This document shows, piece by piece, positions 14,449 to 64,000 of a stretch of DNA of 64,000 bases; the first letter of the stretch is position 1, and each line of letters begins with the position of its first letter. This stretch comes from a virus (taxonomy: Duplodnaviria; Caudoviricetes): positions 14,932-78,931 of IMG/VR virus record IMGVR_UViG_3300037453_000168; one strand, 5' to 3'. A program made the translations under genes and the position numbers. The notes beneath the pieces were generated by a model that ran no database searches, had not been told where the DNA came from, and was given only the letters and a program-made list of their open reading frames with translations.

Positions 14449-15577
14449 ATGAGCGAAACAGAAGACAGGTACAAGTGGCAAAACGAGATATACCCGAAGT
14501 GGGCTAACCAGAACTACGTCGGTCTTGTGAAAGCGTCGACAGGAGCAGGTTAACGGCAAGACCATAGCGACATGTAAGACCTTGCAACAGTTCCAGCAAG
14601 ACCATCCGTTCGATGATATACTCGTGGTAACACCATCGTCCAAACTCAACAGGATGTGGGAGGACGAACTGAAAAGGTATATGATTACCAATTTCAAAGT
14701 GATGACCTATCAGACCGCAGTCAACCGTATGCAGAGGAACGGGCTGACCTGCCGTTGTCTTATCTGTGACGAATGCCACCGTCTGGCCACACCTGTCCAA
14801 GGCCGTGTCCTCGAAATGCAACCGAGATACGTCCTCGGACTGTCGGCCACGCCAGAGGGTGCGCTGGATATCCTCGGAAAGCCGTTGGTCGATATAGACG
14901 TGAATCAGGCCAATCTGTGCGAGTTCACGGTACACTACACATCGTTCCCCATGTCCGCATCCGAGAGGGCGGAATATGATGATATAACACGTCGCATGAG
15001 GTCGAGGGCATCGCAGGTGACGGACGGCATGGCCACATCCCTACCTCCTGGCAGAGATTCATACGGCTGGGGCTCATACGATGCTCTCGCTCGCAAGAGA
15101 AGGGATATAGTCTATAAGCAGACCTCACGCATACCCTACACGGTCGCACTCGTCAAGAGGTACATCACATCGCGCATCATAATCTATACGGAACGTAGGG
15201 AAACGATGCACCGCATAGTACAGGCTCTGATGGACGAGGGGATACAATCGGTGGATGATTCCAATATACAAGCCTACGAGGACGAACGTGTCAATGTGAT
15301 GGTCCTATGCGGAAGGCTCCGTGAGGGTTTCAACAGCGTAACGACCAACATAGTCATAATGGCATCCATCAATACAGGGGTCATAAAGAACGTTCAGACA
15401 ATCGGAAGGGCATTGAGGGTAGACCCGAACAATCCTGATAAGAGGGCGCATATATTCCTGCTCATAGCACAGGGGACATCGGACGAATCGGTCATCAGGA
15501 ATACGGGCGCATATTACAAAGGGCATTCGAAGGTATCGACTATACAGCAGGAACTCGGACAGAACGTGATAGCATGA
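14449..15577 (+). pseudogene. SF2 (DExH, ResIII/XPB-like) helicase interrupted by a frameshift in Walker A
   Basis: Frame 1: MSETEDRYKWQ...GLVKASTGAG then TAA 14551; frame 2 carries GKTIA...ICDECHR...GLSATP...QTIGRALR. Net +1 shift near 14550. Confidence 0.7.
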
Positions 15578-21439: not shown

Positions 21440-22051
21440 TTGGTCGTTGTCGATAATGTCAGGTTGGAGAAGATTCCCATCGAGAAACTGATTCCCCATC
21501 CGAAGAATCCCCGTGTGGCTCTTACCAAAGGGAACCCCATCTATGAGAAACTATACACATCCATCCAGCATCACACATACATAGACCCGATTGTATGGAA
21601 CGAGCGTACAGGATACATCGTGGCTGGTCATCAGAGATTCCAAGTCCTGAAAGATATGGCGGACGAGGACGGAACGGTTCTGAAAGAGATTCCTGTCGTT
21701 GTCGTGAATCTATCGGACAAGGACGAATTGACTTATCTCACAGCCGATAACAAGATTCAGGGTCTATGGGACCCCGATAAGCTGTCCGCCCTGTTCAGAG
21801 AGTTGGAGGACGATGATTACGCCTATACGGGGTTCGACGATTTCGAGATTGCATCCCTTATAGACGATGAGGAACCCGATGTAGGCGACGATGTGATTAT
21901 CGACGATATAGAACCCAAGGGGTTCTCCGTAACGGTCGTGTGCGAATCGGATGACGATAAGGAATTCATGAAAAAGCTTTTCAACGAGGCGGTCAAGCTG
22001 AAAAGAAGATACACGGTATCCGAACTCAGGCTTGCAATCCCGAAGGAGTGA
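21440..22051 (+). CDS. ParB/Srx-like N-terminal domain protein
   Basis: LIPHPKNPR...DPIVWNERTGYIVAGHQR...DNK...WD. Confidence 0.8.
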   Translation: MVVVDNVRLEKIPIEKLIPHPKNPRVALTKGNPIYEKLYTSIQHHTYIDPIVWNERTGYIVAGHQRFQVLKDMADEDGTVLKEIPVVVVNLSDKDELTYLTADNKIQGLWDPDKLSALFRELEDDDYAYTGFDDFEIASLIDDEEPDVGDDVIIDDIEPKGFSVTVVCESDDDKEFMKKLFNEAVKLKRRYTVSELRLAIPKE

Positions 22052-22055
22052 TAAT

Positions 22056-22868
22056 ATGGCTAACAATGAAGATATAAAAGTGAACATCCAGACCGTGATG
22101 AAGAAACTGTCCGATATACACCCTTATGAGAACAATCCCCGTAACAACAAGGTCGCAGTCGATAAGGTCATCAGGTCCATCCAGCAGTTCGGATTCAAAG
22201 TACCCATCATCATAGACAATGACGGCACAATCGTGACAGGGCATACCCGTTATCTCGCATCCAAGAAACTCGGATTGAAGGAAGTGCCCTGCATCCTCGC
22301 AGACGATTTGACCCCCGAACAGATTAAAGCCTATCGCCTTGTCGATAACAAGGTATCCGAATATGCAACATGGGACGTACAGATGTTACAGAAGGAATTG
22401 AAGGATTTGGAGGACTTCGACCTGTCGGAGTATGATTTCGATGAGACATTGCAATCCGTCATAGATACGTCCGAAGAAGCGATACAGGAAGTCCAGCCAG
22501 AGAACCCCTATACATTCAAGATTCAGTTGCCTGAATATGAGGTGCAGGGTTGGGACGTCAATGCATCGGACCTTGTGAATACGGCACAGAGGGACAAACT
22601 TCTCAAAGAGATTAAGGGTGCGGACATACCCGACGATGTACGCATATTCCTCGAACTCGCATCGCAACGCCATCTTATCTTCGATTATACCAAGATTGCC
22701 GAGTTCTATGCACAGGCCGATGAAACGGTACAGGATTTGATGGAACGCTCAGGTCTTGTAATCATAGATTACGATAAGGCAATCCAATACGGATACATGA
22801 ACCTCGTCAAGGAAATCGAGGAATTGAGAGAGAACGATACCGAGGATGATGAGGACAATGAGGGATGA
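22056..22868 (+). CDS. ParB-like protein fused to a conserved C-terminal domain
   Basis: PYENNPR...GFKVPIIID...TGHTR...RLVDNK; C-terminus FLELASQRHLIFDYTKIAEFYA...SGLVIIDYDKAI. Confidence 0.8.
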   Translation: MANNEDIKVNIQTVMKKLSDIHPYENNPRNNKVAVDKVIRSIQQFGFKVPIIIDNDGTIVTGHTRYLASKKLGLKEVPCILADDLTPEQIKAYRLVDNKVSEYATWDVQMLQKELKDLEDFDLSEYDFDETLQSVIDTSEEAIQEVQPENPYTFKIQLPEYEVQGWDVNASDLVNTAQRDKLLKEIKGADIPDDVRIFLELASQRHLIFDYTKIAEFYAQADETVQDLMERSGLVIIDYDKAIQYGYMNLVKEIEELRENDTEDDEDNEG

Positions 22869-23757
22869 CTTCGCTGTATTCATCCTCACACACGGCAGAG
22901 CCGACCATGTGGTTACATACAATACTCTGAAACGTATGAACTATACAGGTAAGATAATCATACTCATAGATGACGAGGATTCCCAAGCCGACAGATACCG
23001 CCTCAATTTCTCCAATATGCCCAATACAGAGGTCGTACAGTTCGACAAGAAGGCTCGTGCGAGATTGACGCAGACCGCCGACAACCTCGACGAGAGGAAC
23101 TCGGTGATATATGCCCGTAACGAGTGTTTTGCCGTCGCACAGGAACGTGGGTTGTCGTATTTCCTTGAATTGGATGACGATTACGGCGGAATATATTTCC
23201 GCTATCCCAAGGACGGCATACTCAAAGCCGATTTCGTACAAGATTTCGATTCCGTATGCGAGTCTATGATTAGATTCTTGGATTCCTCCAAGGCTTGCAC
23301 CGTATGTTTCGCACAGGGAGGGGATTTCATCGGAGGTCTTGAAAAATACAACAATTGGGGAAATAAATCCCGTAAAGCTATGAACTCCTTCTTCTGTTGT
23401 ACCGCAAGACCGTTCAATTTCCTCGGTAGGATGAACGACGATGTGAACTCATACGTCACGCTCGGTTCGAGAGGCCACCTGTTCTGGACGATAAAGGAGA
23501 TATCTGTCAATCCAGCGCAGACACAGGCCGTAGAAGGGGGATTGACAGACATGTATCTGAAATATGGTACGTATGTCAAGTCTTATTATGCTGTCATATT
23601 CAACCCATCCTGTGTCAAGGTGGATTCGATGGGATGGACGAGAAGGAGGATACATCACAAAGTCTATTTTGATAATGCGGTCCCTAAGATTCTGTCGGAG
23701 AATATCAAGAAATCAGACAACATCGTCACTCCGATTTGCAAGGAGTATATGGTATGA
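22846..23757 (+). CDS. GT-A fold glycosyltransferase, GREB1/TET-associated (TAGT)-like, paralog 1
   Basis: FILTHGRAD, LELDDDY, QGGD, GRMNDDVNSY, QAVEGGLTDMY. Confidence 0.7.
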   Translation: MMRTMRDDFAVFILTHGRADHVVTYNTLKRMNYTGKIIILIDDEDSQADRYRLNFSNMPNTEVVQFDKKARARLTQTADNLDERNSVIYARNECFAVAQERGLSYFLELDDDYGGIYFRYPKDGILKADFVQDFDSVCESMIRFLDSSKACTVCFAQGGDFIGGLEKYNNWGNKSRKAMNSFFCCTARPFNFLGRMNDDVNSYVTLGSRGHLFWTIKEISVNPAQTQAVEGGLTDMYLKYGTYVKSYYAVIFNPSCVKVDSMGWTRRRIHHKVYFDNAVPKILSENIKKSDNIVTPICKEYMV

Positions 23758-24662
23758 CATCAGACGATATGTTCGCCATATTCATCCTCACATACAAACG
23801 TGCGGATAACCAGCTAACGCTCGAACATCTTAGGGAGGATTTGGGATACGAGGGCAAGATAATATTGCTGATAGGCGACGATGACCCCCAACAGGAGGAA
23901 TACAGGGCCACAGCATCCAGATATCCGAACACGGATGTATTCGTATTCGATAAATCGAAATCGATTCAGCATTCGGACGTATGCGACAACATCCAGAGAT
24001 TCAATACGGTCGTATTCGTCCGTTCCGAGGTATTCTATGTGGCAAGGGAACTCGGATACACATACTTCATGATTCTGGAAGATGATTACAGCAGTTATCT
24101 GTACCGTTATCCTGAGGATGGGATGCTGAGAAGTCGGAAGGTGCATGATATGGACGGAGTGATTTCCGCTATGCGCAGATTCTATGAATCCACAGATGTG
24201 ACCTCAATATCGTTCTCCATGGGAGGGGATTATATCGGGGGTCTTAGCAAGTATCTGAATTGGGGATACAAGCAGAGGAAGGTATGCAATTCGTTCTTCC
24301 ATTCCACAGACAGGCCGATGCGTTTCATAGCACGCATGAACGACGATATAGCCACTCAGGTCAATATGTCGCAGAGAGGGCATTGTTTCCTGTCTGTCCG
24401 TGAGATAGCCATACCTCAGCCTGAGACCATGACGCAGGAAGGAGGTCTTACAGATATGTACAACGCGAACGGAGAGTATCAAAAAGCATTCTATACCCTC
24501 ATAGCACAGCCATCATGTGTCAAGATAAGATATATGAGACATCTGAAACAGCCGATACATCATTCGGTATCGTACAATAACTGCACACCATGTATCCTGT
24601 CCGATGATATCAAGAAATCCAAGACCAGGATTACACCTATTTGCAAGGAGTATATAGCATGA
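23754..24662 (+). CDS. GT-A fold glycosyltransferase, GREB1/TAGT-like, paralog 2
   Basis: Collinear with paralog 1 (FILTYKRAD, ILEDDY, RMNDD, GGLTDMY, TPICKEY). Confidence 0.7.
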   Translation: MTSDDMFAIFILTYKRADNQLTLEHLREDLGYEGKIILLIGDDDPQQEEYRATASRYPNTDVFVFDKSKSIQHSDVCDNIQRFNTVVFVRSEVFYVARELGYTYFMILEDDYSSYLYRYPEDGMLRSRKVHDMDGVISAMRRFYESTDVTSISFSMGGDYIGGLSKYLNWGYKQRKVCNSFFHSTDRPMRFIARMNDDIATQVNMSQRGHCFLSVREIAIPQPETMTQEGGLTDMYNANGEYQKAFYTLIAQPSCVKIRYMRHLKQPIHHSVSYNNCTPCILSDDIKKSKTRITPICKEYIA

Positions 24663-25387
24663 AAGGAGTCGTACTGGCGGCTGGCGACGGCAAGCGTATA
24701 TCGGGATACCATGATTTCGCATCGAAGGTGCTGATAGAGATAGATGGTCAGCCTTTGATAATGTTGAATATGGAACGTATCTCCCCGTATGTCGATTCTT
24801 TCGTGGTCGTGGTAGGTAAAGCGAAGAAGGAGATTGTATCAAAGGTCGGATATGTATATGATGACAAACCTGTCTACTATGTGGAACAGGAGGTCAGAGA
24901 TGGACCTCTCGGTGCTTTGAGATGCGCCTACGACCTCATAAAGAACGATGATTGCATAATCGTGCTTGCGGACGAATATATCATAGGCGATAGGATTCGC
25001 CAGACAGTAGAGATATTCAACAGACGTTATCCCGATGCCATACTCGGAGTCATACCTGATTCCAAAAAGGAGGATATCGCTCAGACATACTCCATAGAAT
25101 ATCTGTCGGACAATTACGGCAACCCCCACAAAGGGGATTGCGTCAAGAGATTGGTCGAGAAACCCAAGACGTTCCCGAACTCGATAAGAGGTACAGGATA
25201 TTATTTCGTATCCGAATATGTGATTCGCAAGATTCCCCATGTCAAGGCGAGGAAGAACGGCCAGTATGAGATTACCGACCTGTTCAGCTATGTCCTGAAA
25301 GGCGGAGGTACAATCATAACCCGTACAATCGCAGAGAAGGCATACAATATAAATTCGATTGAAGTATTGAACGAGTTGATAGGTTGA
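24659..25387 (+). CDS. Sugar-phosphate nucleotidyltransferase (RmlA/GalU-like)
   Basis: VVLAAGDGKR, LVEKP, GQYEITD. Confidence 0.85.
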   Translation: MKGVVLAAGDGKRISGYHDFASKVLIEIDGQPLIMLNMERISPYVDSFVVVVGKAKKEIVSKVGYVYDDKPVYYVEQEVRDGPLGALRCAYDLIKNDDCIIVLADEYIIGDRIRQTVEIFNRRYPDAILGVIPDSKKEDIAQTYSIEYLSDNYGNPHKGDCVKRLVEKPKTFPNSIRGTGYYFVSEYVIRKIPHVKARKNGQYEITDLFSYVLKGGGTIITRTIAEKAYNINSIEVLNELIG

Positions 25388-25788
25388 GGACGAACAAGCC
25401 AGTATTCGAACCGATGAATCCCAAGGGCTGGGATAAGCATTTCATCGTGGCAATAGATTACGACGGTACTCTGACCTCTAAACGTGACGGCAGTATAGAT
25501 AAGGTCGCAATCCAATACGTCAAGAACATCCGTGACCTCGGATGCGTAATCATCCTATGGACGTCGAGATATGACGAACTTCTCGACAAGGCTATTGCGG
25601 AATGTTCCAAGAGAGGTTTGGAGTTCGATTATGTCAATTCCAATCCTCTACGCCATTCATCGGACAAGGTATCCGCCGACATATATATAGATGACAAATC
25701 CGAGATAGGCCCGATACCTTGGATAAAATGGATTGATTTCATTCAAAAACAGCTTTCACTCAAAGAATATATCCTGATGGAGAGGTAA
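25384..25788 (+). CDS. Cap-less HAD-family phosphatase
   Basis: IVAIDYDGT, IILWTSR, ADIYIDDK. Confidence 0.8.
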   Translation: MRTNKPVFEPMNPKGWDKHFIVAIDYDGTLTSKRDGSIDKVAIQYVKNIRDLGCVIILWTSRYDELLDKAIAECSKRGLEFDYVNSNPLRHSSDKVSADIYIDDKSEIGPIPWIKWIDFIQKQLSLKEYILMER

Positions 25789-25789
25789 T

Positions 25790-26740
25790 ATGGCCGACAA
25801 CATTTCTTCGGATAAACTGATGTATCACATGGCTCATGTGGTCGAAGGACTCCCCATAACCTGCAATTGGTTTCTGAACGATGTATGCAACAACAGATGC
25901 ACCTATTGTAATTTCGCACGTCACATGAACAGGGATGGCAACAATATATCGTATCTTGATTTTGTGAAGTATGCGAACAGATTGAAGGAAATCGGTGTGA
26001 AGGGAATCATACTCGAGGGCGGAGGGGAACCTACTATATGTCCCGACTTCGAGAAGATGACCCAATATCTGGATTGTATCTCCATACCGTACATCATTCT
26101 GACCAACTTCAATGAATACAGAGAGGTAAAGCCAGAGGTTCTGAGGGTGTCCCTCGATGCTTGGTCGGAGGACACATACAAGGCGAAGAGAGGGGTCAGC
26201 AGATACAATAAGGTCAGGGACAATATAATCCGCTATGCTAAATGGAGGGATGAGCATTCACCCGATACAGAGATAGGCATCCAACTTGTCACCTGCGATA
26301 CGTCGGAGATATTGCCGTTCTACGAGGGCAACAAGGATTTACCTGTCGATTACATAACGATAAAGCCGTATGAGTCCACCAACTGCACGTTCTACGATGG
26401 CAAGGACGATGCAATCGCCGAGCAGAACGCCATAATCAAGGCTCTGTCGGAGAAGGATTCCCGTATAGTCTATAATTACAAGTGGCGTGACCTCAACCAT
26501 CGTTTCTCGGAATGCTACGCTCATGCGAATCAAATCGGACTAAGGTGGGACGGTGCGGTCATGTGCTGTTGCCATCGTCCCTACGATGTGCTGGGGAATA
26601 TAATGGACGAGGATATCCTTGTGAAGAACCGTCAGACCAGATTCGATATGTCCAAATGCGACGTTCCGTGCAGACTGACTGGGCCTAACACATTATTGGA
26701 GAATCTGAACAGAGGATGCAAGAATCAGAACTTCATCTAA
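25790..26740 (+). CDS. Radical SAM protein with Cys-rich SPASM/twitch-like C-terminus
   Basis: CNNRCTYC, EGGGEPT, C-terminal C...DGAVMCCCH...C...C. Confidence 0.85.
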   Translation: MADNISSDKLMYHMAHVVEGLPITCNWFLNDVCNNRCTYCNFARHMNRDGNNISYLDFVKYANRLKEIGVKGIILEGGGEPTICPDFEKMTQYLDCISIPYIILTNFNEYREVKPEVLRVSLDAWSEDTYKAKRGVSRYNKVRDNIIRYAKWRDEHSPDTEIGIQLVTCDTSEILPFYEGNKDLPVDYITIKPYESTNCTFYDGKDDAIAEQNAIIKALSEKDSRIVYNYKWRDLNHRFSECYAHANQIGLRWDGAVMCCCHRPYDVLGNIMDEDILVKNRQTRFDMSKCDVPCRLTGPNTLLENLNRGCKNQNFI

Positions 26741-26771: not shown

Positions 26772-27269
26772 ATGCCTAAATCGTATAAGACCGACGAATT
26801 ACAGGAGTATCTTCAATCCAAGAAGGGATTGAACGAGATTACCGAGCAGTCCCGTAGCGGTAAGACCCTCGCAGAGATATCCGAGCATTTCGGGATTGCC
26901 CGTACCACACTATACACATGGTCCAAGAAATATCCTGAGATTCAATCGGCATTATCCGAGGGAAAGCACGTTGCGGATGACCGTGTGGAGCAATCCCTGT
27001 ACGAATCCTGTTTCGGACGTACCGAGAAGGAGGTCACGGTGGAGAAGGACAGGGACGGCAATGTGATTAAATCCATAGTCCGCACCCGTTACATCCCTCC
27101 GAACATCACGGCAATCCAATATTGGTTATCTAATCGTCGCAACGACACATGGAAGGCAAGACAGCAGTTGGAGTTCGCACCCGATACCAAACTGCCTGTG
27201 ATGTTCGTAGAGGATATACCAAACCCGTTCATCAAGAAAGATGTCGAAGAAAAAGACGCATCCGAATGA
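26772..27269 (+). CDS. terS: Terminase small subunit
   Basis: HTH (EISEHFGIARTTLYTWSKKYPE), PPNITAIQYWLSNRR; directly before the large subunit. Confidence 0.8.
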   Translation: MPKSYKTDELQEYLQSKKGLNEITEQSRSGKTLAEISEHFGIARTTLYTWSKKYPEIQSALSEGKHVADDRVEQSLYESCFGRTEKEVTVEKDRDGNVIKSIVRTRYIPPNITAIQYWLSNRRNDTWKARQQLEFAPDTKLPVMFVEDIPNPFIKKDVEEKDASE

Positions 27270-28638
27270 CCTCGAAAGCGAGAACGCATTGGAAGTGCCA
27301 CAGTTCAGGCAATTCAACATATCAAAGCTGATAGGTCAGGGTTATGACGAGTACTGGTGGTGGCACGGCAGATATGCGGTATGCAAGGGCAGTCGTGCCA
27401 GCAAGAAGTCGTTCACAACAGCGTATTGGATAATACTCAATATGATGAAATACCCCCTTGCGAACACGCTCGTGGTCCGCAAGGTTTCGGGTACTAACAA
27501 GGACTCCACATTCGCTCTGTTGATGCAGATTATATACTCGCTCGGTCTGGATGACGAATGGTACGCTCATATATCCCCTTTGGAGATAATATGCCGTAAG
27601 ACCCATCAGAAGATTCTGTTCAGGGGACTGGACGAACCTCAGAAACTATCGTCCATAACCGTGGAGAGAGGGGTCCTATGCTGGATGTGGGTGGAGGAGG
27701 CATATCAGATTACCAACGAGGCCGATTTCGACATTGTCGACCAGTCGATACGCGGTCAGATGCCAGAGGGATATTTCCCACACATAATGATTACATTCAA
27801 TCCTTGGCACAGGGAACATTGGCTCAAAAGAAGGTTCTTCGATACCCCGAACAAGGAGACCCTTGCCATGACTACGAACTATCTGATAAACGAGTTCATA
27901 TCTGATTTCGATAAGAGCTATTTCGAGGATTTGAAAGAACGCAATCCCCGTCTATATCAGGTCGCTGGATTGGGGGATTGGGGAGTGTCCGAGGGTCTGA
28001 TTTATTCCGATTGGGAGGAAAGGGAGTTCGATGTGGGCGAGATTATGAAACGCAACACCGTTCTCGCCCTGTTCGGGCTGGATTTCGGATTCACAGACCC
28101 GACAGCATTCGTCGCTCTGATGCTCGATACCGCAACCCGTACAATATACGTCTATGACGAATGGTATCAGACAGGAGTGCATAACATAGATATCGCCAAC
28201 AAATTGAAGGAAATGGGGTATCAGAACGAGCGTATCGTATGCGATTCGGCACAGCCTGAGTCGATATACGAATTGCAGACCCTTGGTCTTTCCAGAGTCA
28301 CAGGTGCGATAAAAGGTCAAGATTCGGTAGAGTGGGGCATCCAGAAATGCCAGCAGTACCATGTCGTGATTCTTCCCAAATGCGTCAATTTCCTCACAGA
28401 GATTTCGATGTATGCCTATGACCAGGACCGCATGGGTAAATTGATGAACAGGCCCTGTCATGATTTCAGCCACGGCATGGATGCTTGGAGATATGCCGTA
28501 TCCGAGATGCTGTATCGTACAGGACAGATAGAAGGGCTGGTTATCGGGCCGAAGGAAGATGCTCAATCAACGGTGTATCAAAGGAACAGGGCGGAATCAG
28601 AGCATCCAGAGGAATTTGTATCCAAATATGTATTTTAA
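27241..28638 (+). CDS. terL: Terminase large subunit, PBSX-like
   Basis: KGSRASKKS, WMWVEEA, TFNP, GLDFGF.DP, HGMDAWRY. Confidence 0.95.
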   Translation: MSKKKTHPNDLESENALEVPQFRQFNISKLIGQGYDEYWWWHGRYAVCKGSRASKKSFTTAYWIILNMMKYPLANTLVVRKVSGTNKDSTFALLMQIIYSLGLDDEWYAHISPLEIICRKTHQKILFRGLDEPQKLSSITVERGVLCWMWVEEAYQITNEADFDIVDQSIRGQMPEGYFPHIMITFNPWHREHWLKRRFFDTPNKETLAMTTNYLINEFISDFDKSYFEDLKERNPRLYQVAGLGDWGVSEGLIYSDWEEREFDVGEIMKRNTVLALFGLDFGFTDPTAFVALMLDTATRTIYVYDEWYQTGVHNIDIANKLKEMGYQNERIVCDSAQPESIYELQTLGLSRVTGAIKGQDSVEWGIQKCQQYHVVILPKCVNFLTEISMYAYDQDRMGKLMNRPCHDFSHGMDAWRYAVSEMLYRTGQIEGLVIGPKEDAQSTVYQRNRAESEHPEEFVSKYVF

Positions 28639-28783: not shown

Positions 28784-30559
28784 ATGGATTGTCGAGGTAT
28801 GCTATCCACCACACATCTGTCGAAATCGAAGAATAAGCCGAAATCGTCAGAGGTCGCATCGCCCAATCTTCCGAAGAGCGTCATGGGTCTTTCGACCGCT
28901 GAATCATTCGATAAGGGTGTGGTGCAAGAGGTGGAAGTGGTCGGAAGACCATCGAACATCATCTGGAGATTGAATAACCGTTCGTTCTGGTGGCAATTCT
29001 ATTCCCTTATGGATTTCTACCGTTCCGAGGTATCAATACTCGACACCATCATCTCTCGTTCCGTGACCGAGATATTCAGATACGGGATAGATTTCGAGCC
29101 TGCGTTCGTAGTCAAATGTGTGGATTGCGGTAACGAATATCAGAACAACGTGAAGGTATGCCCCTACTGCAACTCCACGAGATTGGTAAAGCCAGAGGAA
29201 AAGCAGAAGGATTATTTCGTCAGACCTGACGGCACATCGTTCCTCGAAGAATGCAACGAGAACCAGCAATCCCTCAAAGACCTGTGCAGAATGTATGCCG
29301 AATCCCAATACCAGAACAATCAGGCATATCTTCTCGTAATAACAGGTGATGTGATTGACAATGAGACCAAGCAGTTGAAACATTCCTATCCGTTGGAATT
29401 CATCTGCATCGACCCTAAATTCGTCCGTTATCTGTATGACGAGCATGCCGAGCCAGGAGAGTTATATGGGTTCACAATGAACGACAGACGCACTCTGATT
29501 ACCCTACCTCATGACGGGGATTTGGTCACTACGACACCAGACGGGGAGGTAATCTATCCAGCATACTGGCAGGTCGGAGACTCCTTCGGTGCTGGCGGAC
29601 CGTATATATCGTACACGAAGGACGAGATATACCAGAACCATTGGTTCAGGCAGTCCATGACCTACGGGATACCCCATTGGCTCTCAATCGAGGACGATTT
29701 GCTCACCTATCATTACATCGAGAAACATAACCTGAAGAAATACAAGTACGGATACGTCCGTAAGATTGTGGTTCTCCCAGGATACGATGTGAATGTAATC
29801 AAGGATGTAGCACAGGGGATACAGAACGTTCTGGCGAAGAACGACAACTCCGTTCCGATAGTCGGATTACCGCCAGCACCCCCAGGCACGAGTCCACAGC
29901 CAGCATCCACCCTCGAAATGGGTGCGGAATCGGGTTCAGACCTCATACAGACCAAGAACGACATCCGTGACAGGCTATGCGCCCATGCTGGTGTCCCCAA
30001 TCTGTTCGCTGGCGACGTGGAGAACGGCGGAGGACTCAACAACGAGTCACAGCAGATTACGACCTTCGACCGTTATCTAATGGACAAATATGATTACACG
30101 GATGATATGCTGGATTGGATTCTTTCGTGGTTCCCCAAGATTACGGATTGGAAACTGAGAGTCAAAAGACCCTCAAAGGCCGACCAAGCCAATAAGCAAC
30201 TTCAAGAGGAAATCCAGATTGCACAGGGCATGAAGAACCTCGGATTCCAAATCACATACACCAACGGAGAGTTCACATACTCCGAGAAACCCGTCGATAT
30301 GGGCATGGGGATGGGCGGAATGGGCGGAGGTATGGACCCTGCGCAGAACACGGATATAGGATTCAGAGGCATGCTTGGGGCTGGCGGACTCGGTAACGAT
30401 ACCGAGCAGATGGATACGAAAGGAGAGGTCGGAGAATATGAGGACGATGCCTATCAGCAGTACCAAGCATCCAAGGATGCAAAGCTAAGGAAGGCTGGTA
30501 GTTCCTTTCGCCTATCTCAAGGGGACCTCAGAAGAGCAATATCTCAAATACATCGGTAA
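28784..30559 (+). CDS. Portal protein
   Basis: Position after terL, 591 aa, RDRLCAHAGVP near the C-terminal third; Zn-ribbon insert CVDCG...CPYC. Confidence 0.8.
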   Translation: MDCRGMLSTTHLSKSKNKPKSSEVASPNLPKSVMGLSTAESFDKGVVQEVEVVGRPSNIIWRLNNRSFWWQFYSLMDFYRSEVSILDTIISRSVTEIFRYGIDFEPAFVVKCVDCGNEYQNNVKVCPYCNSTRLVKPEEKQKDYFVRPDGTSFLEECNENQQSLKDLCRMYAESQYQNNQAYLLVITGDVIDNETKQLKHSYPLEFICIDPKFVRYLYDEHAEPGELYGFTMNDRRTLITLPHDGDLVTTTPDGEVIYPAYWQVGDSFGAGGPYISYTKDEIYQNHWFRQSMTYGIPHWLSIEDDLLTYHYIEKHNLKKYKYGYVRKIVVLPGYDVNVIKDVAQGIQNVLAKNDNSVPIVGLPPAPPGTSPQPASTLEMGAESGSDLIQTKNDIRDRLCAHAGVPNLFAGDVENGGGLNNESQQITTFDRYLMDKYDYTDDMLDWILSWFPKITDWKLRVKRPSKADQANKQLQEEIQIAQGMKNLGFQITYTNGEFTYSEKPVDMGMGMGGMGGGMDPAQNTDIGFRGMLGAGGLGNDTEQMDTKGEVGEYEDDAYQQYQASKDAKLRKAGSSFRLSQGDLRRAISQIHR

Positions 30560-45861: not shown

Positions 45862-46716
45862 ATGGGAAGGAGCATGACCGATATATTCCATTCATTCTTG
45901 AAGACGGTAGGCGGTGGAGAGGGGGACAGATGCCTGTACCCCACGAGATTGGACGTATATGGCAAGGGCTGTCAGCATAACTGCGCCTATTGCTATGCCC
46001 AATCCTTATTGGATTTCAGAGGCAATTGGAATCCAGAAGACCCCTCCGTCGCCGATAAGGATGATGTATCGAAAGCATTGGATTCTATCGAGAAGGGTAC
46101 GATACTTCGCCTTGGAGGTCTTACAGACCCGTTCCAGCCATGCGAGGACAGGCATCACATGAATCGTTGGCTCATACAGGAATTGAACGACAGGGGTATA
46201 GGATACCTCATCGTCACCAAGGGTGCGAACATCCTCGAGAAGAACATGGACGTATTGGATACTGGATTATGCCATGTGCAGATTTCATACACTCATTCCG
46301 ATGGCATGGCACCGCCTGATTTCGAGAACGCATCCCCTCCGCATGACCGTATAAGAGTGGGCGAGATATTGCAGGACAACGGATTCGACATAGCCCTCCG
46401 CCTGTCCCCGTATATGCCACAGTATATAGATATGGATAGAATCAGAGATTGCAGGATTGATAAGATTCTCGTCGAGTTCCTGAGAGCGAATGCTATGATT
46501 AGGAAGAAGATGCCGTATTACGATTTCACGGCATGGAACCGTAAACAGGACGGCTATCAGCAATTATCCCTGTCCGCTAAGAAGATGCTGTTGAGACCGT
46601 TGCTATCCACGGGAAAGAGGATTTCCGTATGCGAGGATTACACCCCTCATTATCTATGGTTCAAGGAAAATGTGAACTTCGATAAGGATGATTGCTGTAT
46701 GCTGAGGAAACCGTAA
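45862..46716 (+). CDS. Spore-photoproduct-lyase-like radical SAM protein
   Basis: LDVYGKGCQHNCAYCYA, GGLTDPFQPCE, LIVTKG. Confidence 0.8.
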   Translation: MGRSMTDIFHSFLKTVGGGEGDRCLYPTRLDVYGKGCQHNCAYCYAQSLLDFRGNWNPEDPSVADKDDVSKALDSIEKGTILRLGGLTDPFQPCEDRHHMNRWLIQELNDRGIGYLIVTKGANILEKNMDVLDTGLCHVQISYTHSDGMAPPDFENASPPHDRIRVGEILQDNGFDIALRLSPYMPQYIDMDRIRDCRIDKILVEFLRANAMIRKKMPYYDFTAWNRKQDGYQQLSLSAKKMLLRPLLSTGKRISVCEDYTPHYLWFKENVNFDKDDCCMLRKP

Positions 46717-63273: not shown

Positions 63274-64000
63274 ATGGAACAGGAACTTAGCAGAGATGCA
63301 TTCTTCGGAATGGCTGGATTGACCGAGAACACCATCGAGAGCGAGATTGCTCCCTACACCCCAATCTCCCTCGGAAAGGGCCACAAGACCCGTAGCGGAA
63401 ACAGGGCTTGGATGAACTCACTCAAAAGGTGCGACTTCTTGGATGCGGACTCTCTCAGGGCATTGACCCCCGAACAGGTTTCCTCCACCCCCGTTTTCGT
63501 CAACAACGAGGAGCAGAAACAGTATCAGGCAATCGTAGGGGACAACACCCACAAGGTGTACTCAATCAGGTCGGACAAGTACAAGATTGTTCAGAACAGC
63601 CTTATGACCGAATCGCTCGCACAAGTATCCGAGAACACGGGCATTCAGGTGTTCGGGACCCTTCACGACGAGGGCGGAAAGATGGGGATAAATGCCTTCT
63701 TCGCAGACCCCGACTGCAACGTGGACTTCGGAACCCATCAGAAAGACCCCTACATGCTCGGAGTGAGAGCCTACAACTCCCACACGGGACAGACGGGATT
63801 CGGAGCGCAAATCATCGGGGTGCGTTGGCTCTGCTCGAACATGGTATCATTCGGTCAGACCCTCGGACACGAGCATTGGAAACACTACGTCGAGCAGAAG
63901 GACGTTGTTTCCAAGATTTCTGGCATGATAGAAAGCTACATGGATAAGGTACCCGTACTCAAGGACAGGATAGATGCTCTCATGCCAGAAATCTTGGAAA
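63274..64000 (+). CDS. DUF932-family protein (3'-truncated; absent from ORF track)
   Basis: SDKYKIVQN...AYNSHTGQT...VRWLCSNM. Confidence 0.75.
   Translation, partial: MEQELSRDAFFGMAGLTENTIESEIAPYTPISLGKGHKTRSGNRAWMNSLKRCDFLDADSLRALTPEQVSSTPVFVNNEEQKQYQAIVGDNTHKVYSIRSDKYKIVQNSLMTESLAQVSENTGIQVFGTLHDEGGKMGINAFFADPDCNVDFGTHQKDPYMLGVRAYNSHTGQTGFGAQIIGVRWLCSNMVSFGQTLGHEHWKHYVEQKDVVSKISGMIESYMDKVPVLKDRIDALMPEILE

Follow-up and report, generated by a model that had tools for sequence, protein, structure and literature searches.

A putative radical SAM and glycosyltransferase operon adjacent to the terminase genes of a virus probably infecting methanogens

Introduction

Phages decorate their DNA by several routes that combine base-modifying enzymes with glycosyltransferases (GTs). 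In hypermodification clusters built around ParB-dependent thymine dioxygenases (5mYOX, TET/JBP), a ParB homolog with a nucleotide-binding N domain and a C-terminal domain, but without an evident DNA-binding domain, is encoded next to DNA-modifying enzymes and activates the dioxygenase on double-stranded DNA (O'Toole et al., PNAS 2026, PMC13229309). These clusters follow a post-replicative logic and frequently also hold GTs (31%) and terminases (19%). The founding member of the TAGT family (PF20691), the beta-glucosyl-HMC-alpha-glucosyltransferase of phages T2 and T6, adds a second glucose to glucosyl-5hmC that is made pre-replicatively, and is the only characterised TAGT (PMC13216743, PMC13390438). 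"Solitary" TAGTs, lacking alpha/beta-GT, have been reported in 288 of 753 phage genomes. Phage MT/5mYOX/GT biosynthetic gene clusters put mono- to trisaccharides on 5hmC, starting from a C5-methylase plus TET and using host sugars; about 65% of the GT contigs in that study lack a 5mYOX or ThyS neighbour, and "annotated viperins" were noted nearby (Pyle et al., bioRxiv 10.1101/2023.12.21.572611). A precedent for a phage radical SAM enzyme that remodels a group already attached to a base in DNA is the SPL-like M6 gp53 from the thymidine hypermodification pathways (Lee et al., NAR 2021, PMC8989533). The radical SAM enzymes DesII, a TDP-4-amino-4,6-dideoxyglucose deaminase, and BlsE, a cytosylglucuronate decarboxylase, act on hexoses attached to a nucleotide or a nucleobase.

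Here, a 64,000-nucleotide window (positions 14,932 to 78,931 of IMG/VR record IMGVR_UViG_3300037453_000168, Caudoviricetes) was analysed together with the rest of the 78.9-kb genome. A preliminary description, made from the sequence alone, had proposed that seven genes upstream of the terminase encode a pathway in which the virus activates a sugar, tailors it by radical SAM chemistry, and transfers it in two steps to DNA or, alternatively, to the capsid. The seven-gene operon described there is confirmed by our analysis. The interpretation given to it is only partly supported.

Organization of the operon

Seven genes on the plus strand, which overlap or abut by 1–23 nt, run straight into the packaging genes terS (26772–27269), terL (27241–28638), and portal (28784–30559), which were identified by phrog_309 (E 1e-31), Terminase_3 (E 4e-44) plus Terminase_3C, and portal phrog_18178. 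The same order, with the module followed by terS and then terL, occurs with several unrelated terminase types in other viruses.

The first gene (21440–22051) encodes ParB1, a ParB/Srx N-domain protein with an acidic tail (ParB_N 28.7 bits; phrog_620 E 2e-37), which also matches the N-terminus of the ParB-methyltransferase family phrog_498 (E 3e-35). A sequence alignment shows that ParB1 lacks the conserved C-terminal domain of ParB2. The second gene (22032–22868, with a likely ATG start at 22056) encodes ParB2 (ParB_N 27.2 bits; phrog_620 E 2e-58 over the full length), the ortholog of the ParB found next to TAGT in other viruses. The AlphaFold2 model of ParB2 contains a ParB CTPase-type N domain (pLDDT above 90), an acidic disordered linker (below 50), and a conserved helical C-terminal domain (about 80). 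A Foldseek search matched the N domain to Myxococcus ParB-CDP with 30–32% identity and an rmsd of 2.0. The motifs of the C-terminal domain occur only in ParBs that accompany a TAGT (3 of 3 against 0 of 24). ParB2 is very acidic, with a pI of 4.4, and has no recognisable DNA-binding domain.

The next two genes encode GT-A glycosyltransferases of the TAGT family. TAGT1 (22846–23757; PF20691, 117.7 bits against a cut-off of 27.5, E 8.5e-34; phrog_842 E 3e-58) is the conserved copy and is 45–53% identical to ParB-linked TAGTs in hundreds of viral contigs. It retains the DxD motif (LDDDY) and the other invariant residues, and its pI is about 8. TAGT2 (23736–24662; PF20691, 96.5 bits, E 2.6e-27) is a fast-evolving tandem duplicate with the motif EDD, in which the two invariant Asp residues are kept. 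The preliminary description of the two genes as collinear paralogs holds, because they are each other's nearest relatives with a support of 98, although the branch of TAGT2 is 0.99 long compared with 0.30 for TAGT1.

The fifth gene (24641–25387) encodes a sugar-1-phosphate nucleotidylyltransferase, an RmlA/AglF-like NDP-sugar pyrophosphorylase (NTP_transferase 58.9 bits; LAAGDGKR motif). Its best NCBIfam matches are AglF, archaeal GlmU-N, and RmlA, all far below their equivalog cut-offs, and it matches RmlA of PDB 3hl3 with E 5e-11. The sister virus L135 carries an 80% identical copy, and the identity to pyrophosphorylases paired with the radical SAM in archaeal loci is 34–41%. The sixth gene (25384–25788) encodes a small capless HAD-type phosphatase of the BT0820 family (NF046079 E 1.9e-16, below the cut-off; PDB 2obb E 1e-10; phrog_1238 E 6e-21) with DYDGT and DD motifs.

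The seventh gene (25790–26740) encodes a radical SAM enzyme, rSAM1 (Radical_SAM 43.6 bits), with the CX3CX2C motif CNNRCTYC. Residues C242, C260, C261, C290, and C294 are invariant in 33 homologs. The preliminary label "SPASM-type" is partly right: the C-terminal cysteine set is SPASM/twitch-like, and relatives carry precomputed PF13186 hits.

Predicted structure and gene neighbourhoods of rSAM1

The AlphaFold2 model of rSAM1 has a pLDDT of 93, and in structure comparison its closest folds are DesII and BlsE, both with a VIA Z score of 21.4, over 297 and 277 aligned residues. The sequence identity is only 15–17%. By contrast, the DNA enzyme SPL has a score of 11.2. The fold ties are not exclusive, however, because SkfB, a peptide enzyme, has a score of 21.0, and other peptide-modifying SPASM enzymes score almost as high as DesII and BlsE. 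The rSAM1 family is acidic, with a median pI of 5.7.

rSAM1 belongs to a largely viral family with relatives on 269 IMG/VR contigs, of which 80 loci were fetched. TAGT is located at most 411 nt away (median 17) in 69 of the 80 loci, and ParB and TAGT are adjacent in 67 of these 69. In five more loci, rSAM1 lies between portal-MuF and the scaffold and capsid genes, with a GT2-family glycosyltransferase right after the capsid gene and no ParB. The remaining six loci showed no GT, but three of them are cut at the contig edge. In Methanomassiliicoccales RumEn M2 and four metagenome contigs, a radical SAM with 59–61% identity pairs with a GT1 and an adjacent pyrophosphorylase. rSAM1 therefore travels with three unrelated glycosyltransferase families, and it forms a conserved pair with a pyrophosphorylase in its closest archaeal relatives. 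Prophage copies sit in strict gut anaerobes, and all cellular carriers found are strict anaerobes. The host of the virus studied here is probably an oxygen-free gut methanogen of the Methanomassiliicoccales, in agreement with the archaeal host assumed previously.

The conserved core of the module is ParB-TAGT-radical SAM-terminase, but the seven genes are not one ancestral pathway. ParB-TAGT is widespread, the radical SAM is an add-on found in viruses of anaerobes, and the pyrophosphorylase and HAD genes are specific to this lineage. Of the 79 loci with the closest TAGT relatives (45–53% identity), 71 are ParB-TAGT pairs with neither a radical SAM nor an oxidase, and ParB and TAGT are adjacent in 77. 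ParB-TAGT sits either in front of the terminase or, in 13 loci, between DNA polymerase A and the sliding clamp.

Candidate acceptor-making enzymes and restriction sites

The preliminary description noted no TET or hydroxymethylase in the window, and this holds for the whole 78.9-kb record, in which no Tet_JBP, Thymidylat_synt, Thy1, or C5 DNA_methylase hit was found. Five complete (97–100%) ParB-TAGT-rSAM1 genomes also have no Tet_JBP or thymidylate-synthase-type hit. However, the window holds a candidate DNA-directed enzyme that had been missed, a second radical SAM, rSAM2 (45862–46716, plus strand), located 19 kb downstream among the structural genes. It was detected in the whole-genome Pfam screen (Radical_SAM/Fer4_12) and has the motif CQHNCAYC. 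Its atlas neighbours are automatically named "SPL family radical SAM", and a 56% homolog is named "DNA repair photolyase"; however, the Pfam SPL model gave no hit, and a profile search of the PDB found no SPL. The rSAM2 family is immediately followed by a ParB N-domain gene in 11 of 80 viral loci and forms rSAM2-ParB-TAGT cassettes in three (L261, L271, and L273). It is absent from the flanks of 159 TAGT or rSAM1 loci and from the five complete genomes, and its membership in the pathway is uncertain.

The genome strongly avoids the sites GATC (6 observed, 531 expected), CCGG (7 and 273), CTAG (10 and 91), and CGCG (28 and 162). Therefore, the DNA is evidently not shielded wholesale, which argues against genome-wide "hypermodification".

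Possible function of the operon

The gene content, the coupling of the genes, the family assignments, the duplication of TAGT, and the neighbourhood counts are results of the analysis, whereas the reactions, their order, and DNA as the target are inferred from sequence, predicted structure, and analogy, without biochemical evidence for any step. The explanation that we favour, tentatively, is that the genes form a late-expressed, self-sufficient glycosylation operon, which most likely decorates the DNA of the virus shortly before or during packaging. As follows from the family assignments, the HAD phosphatase and the pyrophosphorylase would turn a host sugar phosphate into an NDP-sugar. The DesII/BlsE-like rSAM1 would remodel the sugar by radical chemistry such as deoxygenation, oxidation, or decarboxylation, acting either on the nucleotide sugar or after transfer. 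The two TAGTs would transfer the sugar, and ParB2 would help them to work on duplex DNA, with its C-terminal domain as the TAGT-specific partner module, by analogy with the ParB-activated phage thymine dioxygenases. Transfer in two steps, as proposed previously, is only one option. The TAGTs are a recent duplication in this lineage, and there are also two ParB types; the TAGTs may build a disaccharide or serve two sites. The modification is probably sparse or site-specific.

The association of rSAM1 with glycosyl transfer irrespective of the GT type, its predicted fold, and its acidic character, which contrasts with the basic TAGT, indicate that it is best read as a sugar tailor; however, co-occurrence with GTs and a pyrophosphorylase would also be expected if it prepared the acceptor. 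DNA as the target remains an inference from the TAGT family, from the position of ParB-TAGT beside the terminase or replication genes, and from ParB, the N domain of which belongs to the same subfamily that is fused to phage DNA methyltransferases (phrog_498). Every characterised TAGT-type reaction uses a hydroxymethylated or already glycosylated base, and no enzyme making such an acceptor was found in the record. However, ParB-TAGT works in many viruses with neither an oxidase nor a radical SAM, so it probably needs no virus-made hydroxymethyl base.

It is less likely, but remains a live possibility, that rSAM1 is the oxygen-free counterpart of the ParB-dependent TET/JBP-type dioxygenase, abstracting a hydrogen from a base in DNA, for example from the thymine methyl group, to create the hydroxylated acceptor for the TAGTs, while the pyrophosphorylase and HAD would only supply the donor. 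rSAM1 occupies the place that 5mYOX holds in the published ParB-5mYOX-GT-terminase clusters (PMC13229309), an O2-dependent dioxygenase could not work in strict anaerobes, and no other acceptor maker is visible in the five complete genomes or in this genome. By contrast, the 71 ParB-TAGT loci and cultured phages without a radical SAM or oxidase, the predicted fold nearest to sugar-nucleotide enzymes and far from SPL, the acidity of the family, and the pairing of rSAM1 with a GT2 beside the capsid gene without any ParB, and with a pyrophosphorylase in an archaeal island, speak against this reading.

It is similarly unlikely that the operon glycosylates virion proteins (capsid, portal, or tail) or another macromolecule, with the ParB proteins serving packaging or partition. 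The five loci with a GT2 next to the capsid gene, the absence of a base-activating enzyme, the exposure of the DNA to restriction indicated by the site avoidance, and the acidic ParB2 without a DNA-binding domain favour this possibility. However, ParB and TAGT are adjacent in nearly all loci, the C-terminal domain of ParB2 co-varies with TAGT, the pair lies between replication genes in 13 viruses, the characterised TAGT acts on DNA (PMC13216743), and ParB homologs are proven activators of DNA base-modifying enzymes (PMC13229309).

A division of work in which rSAM2 prepares the base, perhaps with the N-domain-only ParB1, while rSAM1 tailors the sugar, is the least probable, because, despite its family's ParB-linked loci, its database names, the precedent of M6 gp53, and the two ParB types of this virus, rSAM2 is not matched by SPL profiles, is distant from the operon, and is absent from the TAGT and rSAM1 loci and complete genomes examined.

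Comparison with known systems

The operon shares with the ParB-dependent dioxygenase clusters (PMC13229309) a ParB with a nucleotide-binding N domain and a C-terminal domain, but without an evident DNA-binding domain, next to putative modifying enzymes, and an inferred post-replicative logic; however, no 5mYOX is present here or in any related locus examined, the ParB partner appears to be the TAGT itself, a radical SAM, a pyrophosphorylase, and a HAD are present, and the hosts are strict anaerobes. The TAGTs belong to the same Pfam family and PHROG (phrog_842) as the T2/T6 enzyme and share its GT-A fold and DxD motif, but they are linked to ParB and terminase, and the virus has no hydroxymethylase and no alpha/beta-GT. 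As in the MT/5mYOX/GT clusters, virus-encoded GT-A enzymes are located near ParB, terminase, and sugar-modifying genes, but the operon has its own sugar-activation genes and a radical SAM, and no methylase or TET. rSAM1 shares with DesII and BlsE the radical SAM core and a C-terminal auxiliary domain, whereas its substrate and reaction can only be inferred. The thymidine hypermodification pathways start from 5-hmdU made pre-replicatively, use a DNA kinase and amino-acid transfer, and involve no glycosyltransferase or ParB, and rSAM1, unlike M6 gp53, is not SPL-like. The cultured phages E. coli vB_EcoS-613R10, L. gasseri phi jlb1, Nocardia NTR1, and Haloarcula HHTV-2 carry ParB-TAGT pairs for which no function is annotated in the four records or was found in the papers searched. 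These phages have no Tet_JBP hit, radical SAM, pyrophosphorylase, or HAD; however, their ParB, with the conserved C-terminal domain, and TAGT are orthologous to those described here at 39–47% identity and are encoded in the same order and in the same place before terS and terL.

Gene content and family assignments of the operon

The window comprises bases 14932-78931 of an IMG/VR virus record that is 78,931 base pairs long, and all of its genes run on the + strand. The first 126 bases of the record (1-126) recur near its end at 78788-78913 (window 63857-63982), followed by an 18-base inverted tail that looks like an assembly artefact. The genome is therefore probably complete or nearly so, or terminally redundant, although IMG/VR labels it linear and CheckV estimates it to be 75% complete. 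The preliminary description reported seven coupled genes in front of the terminase, and this observation holds: the genes are real, each carries the domain that had been assigned to it, neighbouring genes overlap or abut, and the row continues into terS, terL and portal. A shared promoter motif upstream of ParB1 could not be established.

The first two genes encode ParB1 (21440-22051) and ParB2 (22032-22868, with a likely start at 22056). Both match the N-terminus of ParB-methyltransferase fusions (phrog_498, E 1e-35 to 1e-43). The N domain of ParB2 matches structures of CTP-binding ParB proteins (ParB-CDP) at 30-32% identity and an rmsd of 2.0. In its predicted structure, the N domain is followed by an acidic disordered linker and a helical C-terminal domain, which is conserved. 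The C-terminal domain has no match in the PDB, and the absence of a DNA-binding domain is not proven.

TAGT1 (22846-23757) and TAGT2 (23736-24662) score 117.7 and 96.5 bits against the PF20691 profile, above the curated cut-off of 27.5, and match phrog_842 with E values of 3e-58 and 6e-51. Both copies keep the DxD motif of GT-A enzymes; D111 and D112 are invariant in 12 sequences, with LDDDY in TAGT1 and LEDDY in TAGT2. The two were described as collinear paralogs, and they are each other's nearest relatives, with TAGT2 evolving fast. By contrast, second TAGTs in other viruses come from other clades.

The gene at 24641-25387 encodes an RmlA/AglF-like sugar-1-phosphate nucleotidylyltransferase. 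It scores 58.9 bits against PF00483, for which the cut-off is 21.2, has the G-x-G-x-R signature in the motif LAAGDGKR, and matches RmlA structures with an E value of 5e-11. However, its best match among the equivalog models, which would name the sugar and the nucleotide, is AglF at 98.9 bits against a cut-off of 400. The gene at 25384-25788 encodes a small HAD-type protein with the motifs DYDGT and DD. It matches PDB entry 2obb with an E value of 1e-10 and the BT0820 family model NF046079 with 60.7 bits, below the cut-off of 165.

The last of the seven genes (25790-26740) encodes a radical SAM enzyme, rSAM1, with the CX3CX2C motif CNNRCTYC, in which C33, C37 and C40 are invariant. It scores 43.6 bits against PF04055, and its predicted structure (pLDDT 93) matches many radical SAM structures with Z scores of 17-21. 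The enzyme was previously described as SPASM-type. Its C-terminal cysteines C242, C260, C261, C290 and C294 are invariant and some homologs carry PF13186, but these are fewer cysteines than in a full SPASM set, and binding of an auxiliary Fe-S cluster is a conjecture from the sequence. Public gene calls start the protein at Met46 (P0003, the public protein entry, is 271 residues long, and the Atlas record is the same), which cuts off the CX3CX2C motif (window 25790-25925). Homologs align from residue 1, and the ATG at 25790 is therefore the real start.

Conservation of the ParB-TAGT-radical SAM core

rSAM1 belongs to a compact, mostly viral family. Protein searches gave 130 clusters at 43-82% identity, and 87 representatives at E values up to 1e-30 among 1.84 billion proteins; the Atlas neighbours are viral. 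Single-protein scans of IMG/VR with rSAM1 and with TAGT1 found nothing, whereas an alignment-based profile scan with rSAM1 found 269 IMG/VR contigs. Of the 80 loci that were fetched, 69 have a TAGT within 411 nucleotides of rSAM1 (median 17 nucleotides), and 67 of those also have a ParB2-type gene. The usual order is ParB, then one or two TAGTs, then rSAM1, terS and terL, and it recurs with several unrelated terminase families. The trio is therefore a mobile module that keeps its place in front of the packaging genes. None of those loci has the pyrophosphorylase or the HAD gene, which are shared only with an 80%-identical sister virus (L135).

Probable host

The best match of rSAM1 in reference genomes (59%) is in Methanomassiliicoccales archaeon RumEn M2. 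All other good matches are ParB-TAGT-rSAM prophages of strict gut anaerobes: Blautia, Clostridia, Lachnospiraceae, Phascolarctobacterium and Bacteroidaceae. The capsid protein has 48-49% relatives in 2 of 151 genomes of the same order, and the terminase is 44% identical to that of a Methanomassiliicoccales virus. An archaeal, strictly anaerobic host is thus likely but not proven. The related Methanomassiliicoccales virus vir335 has no such cluster before its terminase. No TAGT was found in the 151 genomes of the host order, and rSAM1 was found only in RumEn M2.

Candidate role of the radical SAM enzyme

The interpretation given in the preliminary description, in which the virus activates its own sugar, tailors it by radical SAM chemistry and transfers it in two steps, is supported in part. 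The gene content, the family matches, the recurrence of the module and the outcomes of the searches are shown by this analysis. By contrast, the reaction of rSAM1, the transfer of a sugar to DNA by the TAGTs and the assistance of ParB are inferred from sequence, predicted structure, gene context and analogy, without biochemistry for any step.

The predicted structure of rSAM1 is closest to DesII and BlsE, both with a Z score of 21.4. These two radical SAM enzymes act on a hexose bound to a nucleotide or to cytosine. SkfB, MoaA and viperin follow, whereas the DNA enzyme SPL scores only 11.2. A possible action of rSAM1 on a nucleotide- or nucleobase-linked hexose is indicated only by this fold ranking and by gene context.

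rSAM1 travels with three unrelated glycosyltransferase families, of which TAGT is the first. The second is a GT2-type enzyme placed right after the major capsid gene in five viruses, which carry the radical SAM after portal-MuF and have no ParB (L016 5381-6043, L018, L035 and L081 are among these viral loci). This is a possible capsid-glycosylation variant of the pairing of a radical SAM with a glycosyltransferase. The GT2 enzyme is not a hidden TAGT (hhalign probability 0.3). The third family is a GT1 fused to Sel1/LRR repeats in RumEn M2 (L086 604-7655) and four metagenome contigs (L136-L139); the contexts of the closest rSAM1 homologs were seen only through a metagenome scan. The shared island comprises a GT1-Sel1-LRR_5 fusion, a 223-residue unknown protein, an AAA_14-LRR_5 protein, a radical SAM that is 59-61% identical to rSAM1, a pyrophosphorylase and a Sel1 protein. 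The radical SAM is always directly followed by the pyrophosphorylase, which is 34-41% identical to the viral one. Because rSAM1 relatives were found in only 1 of 151 genomes of the order, the island looks like a sporadic accessory or conflict-type island rather than a core host pathway.

Seen from the TAGT side, 71 of the 79 viral loci with the closest TAGTs (45-53% identity) are ParB-TAGT pairs with no radical SAM. Most of these stand before terS/terL. Thirteen lie inside the replication module, in the order primase, DNA polymerase A, short ParB, TAGT, sliding clamp, Cas4-like nuclease and RecU, and in six others a TagD-like cytidylyltransferase follows the TAGT (the viral loci L152, L170, L173, L178, L194, L199 and others). 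Cultured phages of E. coli, L. gasseri, Nocardia and Haloarcula have the same bare pair and no Tet_JBP hit. In Escherichia phage vB_EcoS-613R10 (L083 3265-4939), a lambdoid phage, the pair sits between trkG and the terminase, a layout that recalls the trkG-ynaK-ydaY region of the Rac prophage of K-12. On this evidence, the TAGT clade probably needs no virus-encoded oxidase, and the radical SAM is an accessory. Furthermore, the rSAM1 family is acidic, with a median pI of 5.7, whereas TAGT is basic at about 8.

The initial idea was that rSAM1 replaces the oxygen-dependent, ParB-activated thymine dioxygenases described in 2026 (PMC13229309). It was downgraded because most of the closest TAGT loci lack any radical SAM, rSAM1 pairs with other glycosyltransferase families, and its predicted fold is sugar-enzyme-like. 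However, none of this is proof, since a base-priming enzyme would also sit next to glycosyltransferases, and five complete ParB-TAGT-rSAM genomes show no Tet_JBP hit, no thymidylate-synthase-type enzyme and no second radical SAM of the type found in this virus. The idea is therefore retained as an unlikely alternative. In its broader form, which is also unlikely but not excluded, viruses of strict anaerobes would use a radical SAM enzyme, either rSAM1 of the trio or, in this virus, a second radical SAM called SPL-like, to do without oxygen what TET/JBP dioxygenases do with it, and so prime a DNA base for glycosylation. That would be an O2-independent route to hydroxylated or glycosylated DNA bases, found here in a likely archaeal virus with its own supply of a tailored sugar. 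The reading of rSAM1 as a viperin was rejected, because it scores 31.4 bits against the viperin model NF038283, for which the cut-off is 180, and viperin structures rank below DesII, BlsE, SkfB and MoaA.

Candidate target of the glycosyltransferases

DNA is the likely target of the operon. The ParB matches to CTP-binding structures and to methyltransferase fusions point this way. The motifs of the C-terminal domain of ParB2 occur only in ParBs that accompany a TAGT (3 of 3 against 0 of 24), which suggests that the domain is the TAGT-docking part. The one characterised TAGT glucosylates DNA (PMC13216743), and ParB homologs activate DNA base oxidation on duplex DNA (PMC13229309). The placement of the pair in the replication module of 13 viruses also fits DNA. 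By contrast, a blanket modification is disfavoured by the extreme avoidance of palindromic tetramers in the whole record. GATC occurs 6 times against 531 expected and CCGG 7 times against 273, and CTAG (10 against 91) and CGCG (28 against 162) are also avoided. This shows long-term exposure to restriction, and any modification is therefore probably sparse or site-specific.

Search for an acceptor-making enzyme and a second radical SAM

The preliminary description noted that no TET or hydroxymethylase was visible in the window and proposed a search of the rest of the genome. Over the whole record there is no Tet_JBP, Thymidylat_synt, Thy1 or C5 DNA_methylase hit, and a Pfam screen of 64 further ORFs showed no dioxygenase or methylase family among the 25 of 27 families that it listed. 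Accordingly, neither a 5-methylpyrimidine dioxygenase next to ParB nor an association of the TAGTs with a TET/JBP dioxygenase or a T-even alpha/beta-GT was found. There was no Tet_JBP hit in four cultured ParB-TAGT phages or in the five complete ParB-TAGT-rSAM genomes either; however, the Tet_JBP model misses divergent members, and the search had no positive control for divergent phage 5mYOX. The only nucleotide-pool enzyme found in the genome is a dUTPase-family protein (PF00692, E 5e-14), encoded just upstream of the window at 14611-15018 of L001, the sequence that together with the window makes up the record; the gene ends at window position 87.

The screen revealed a second radical SAM gene, rSAM2, at 45862-46716 on the + strand, among the structural genes. 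It encodes 284 residues with the motif CQHNCAYC. Its neighbours in the Atlas are automatically named 'SPL family', and a 56% homolog is named 'DNA repair photolyase', but the Pfam SPL model (PF20903) gave no hit and a profile search of the PDB found no SPL. The family, with more than 2300 homologs, is directly followed by a ParB N-domain gene in 11 of 80 viral loci and forms rSAM2-ParB-TAGT in three (L261, L271 and L273). It is absent from 159 TAGT or rSAM1 loci and from the five complete genomes. rSAM2 is a lead for the base-priming step in this virus, perhaps working with ParB1, but it is not a general partner of the module.

Implications and relation to known systems

Glycosylated phage DNA is known from T-even phages and, more recently, from TET-dependent pathways. 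All of those need a hydroxylated pyrimidine, and the post-replicative ones need oxygen. The operon and its roughly 270 viral relatives represent a putative ParB-assisted TAGT system in which no such enzyme was found, which gains a radical SAM, and which lives in strict anaerobes, including a likely methanogen virus. If the products are confirmed, the system would reveal either a new DNA-linked sugar made by radical chemistry or a new acceptor chemistry. It would give a function to the very common 'solitary' ParB-TAGT pairs of prophages, E. coli Rac-like ones included, and would add archaeal viruses to the organisms with sugar-modified DNA. It would also define a testable three-gene core for heterologous reconstitution.

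TAGT is reported to have been first named by Iyer et al. 2013 (NAR). Literature searches for the ParB-TAGT-radical SAM combination returned no paper describing it. Pyle et al. mention 'annotated viperins' near such glycosyltransferases, which may be the rSAM1 family, although rSAM1 itself fails the viperin model. The nearest described systems are the ParB-dependent 5mYOX clusters and the MT/5mYOX/GT clusters of the Saleh laboratory, and the T6 TAGT. The locus shares ParB, TAGT and the terminase position with them. However, no oxidase was found in it, it adds a radical SAM with a predicted DesII/BlsE-like fold and its own putative sugar-activation genes, and it sits in a probable archaeal virus.
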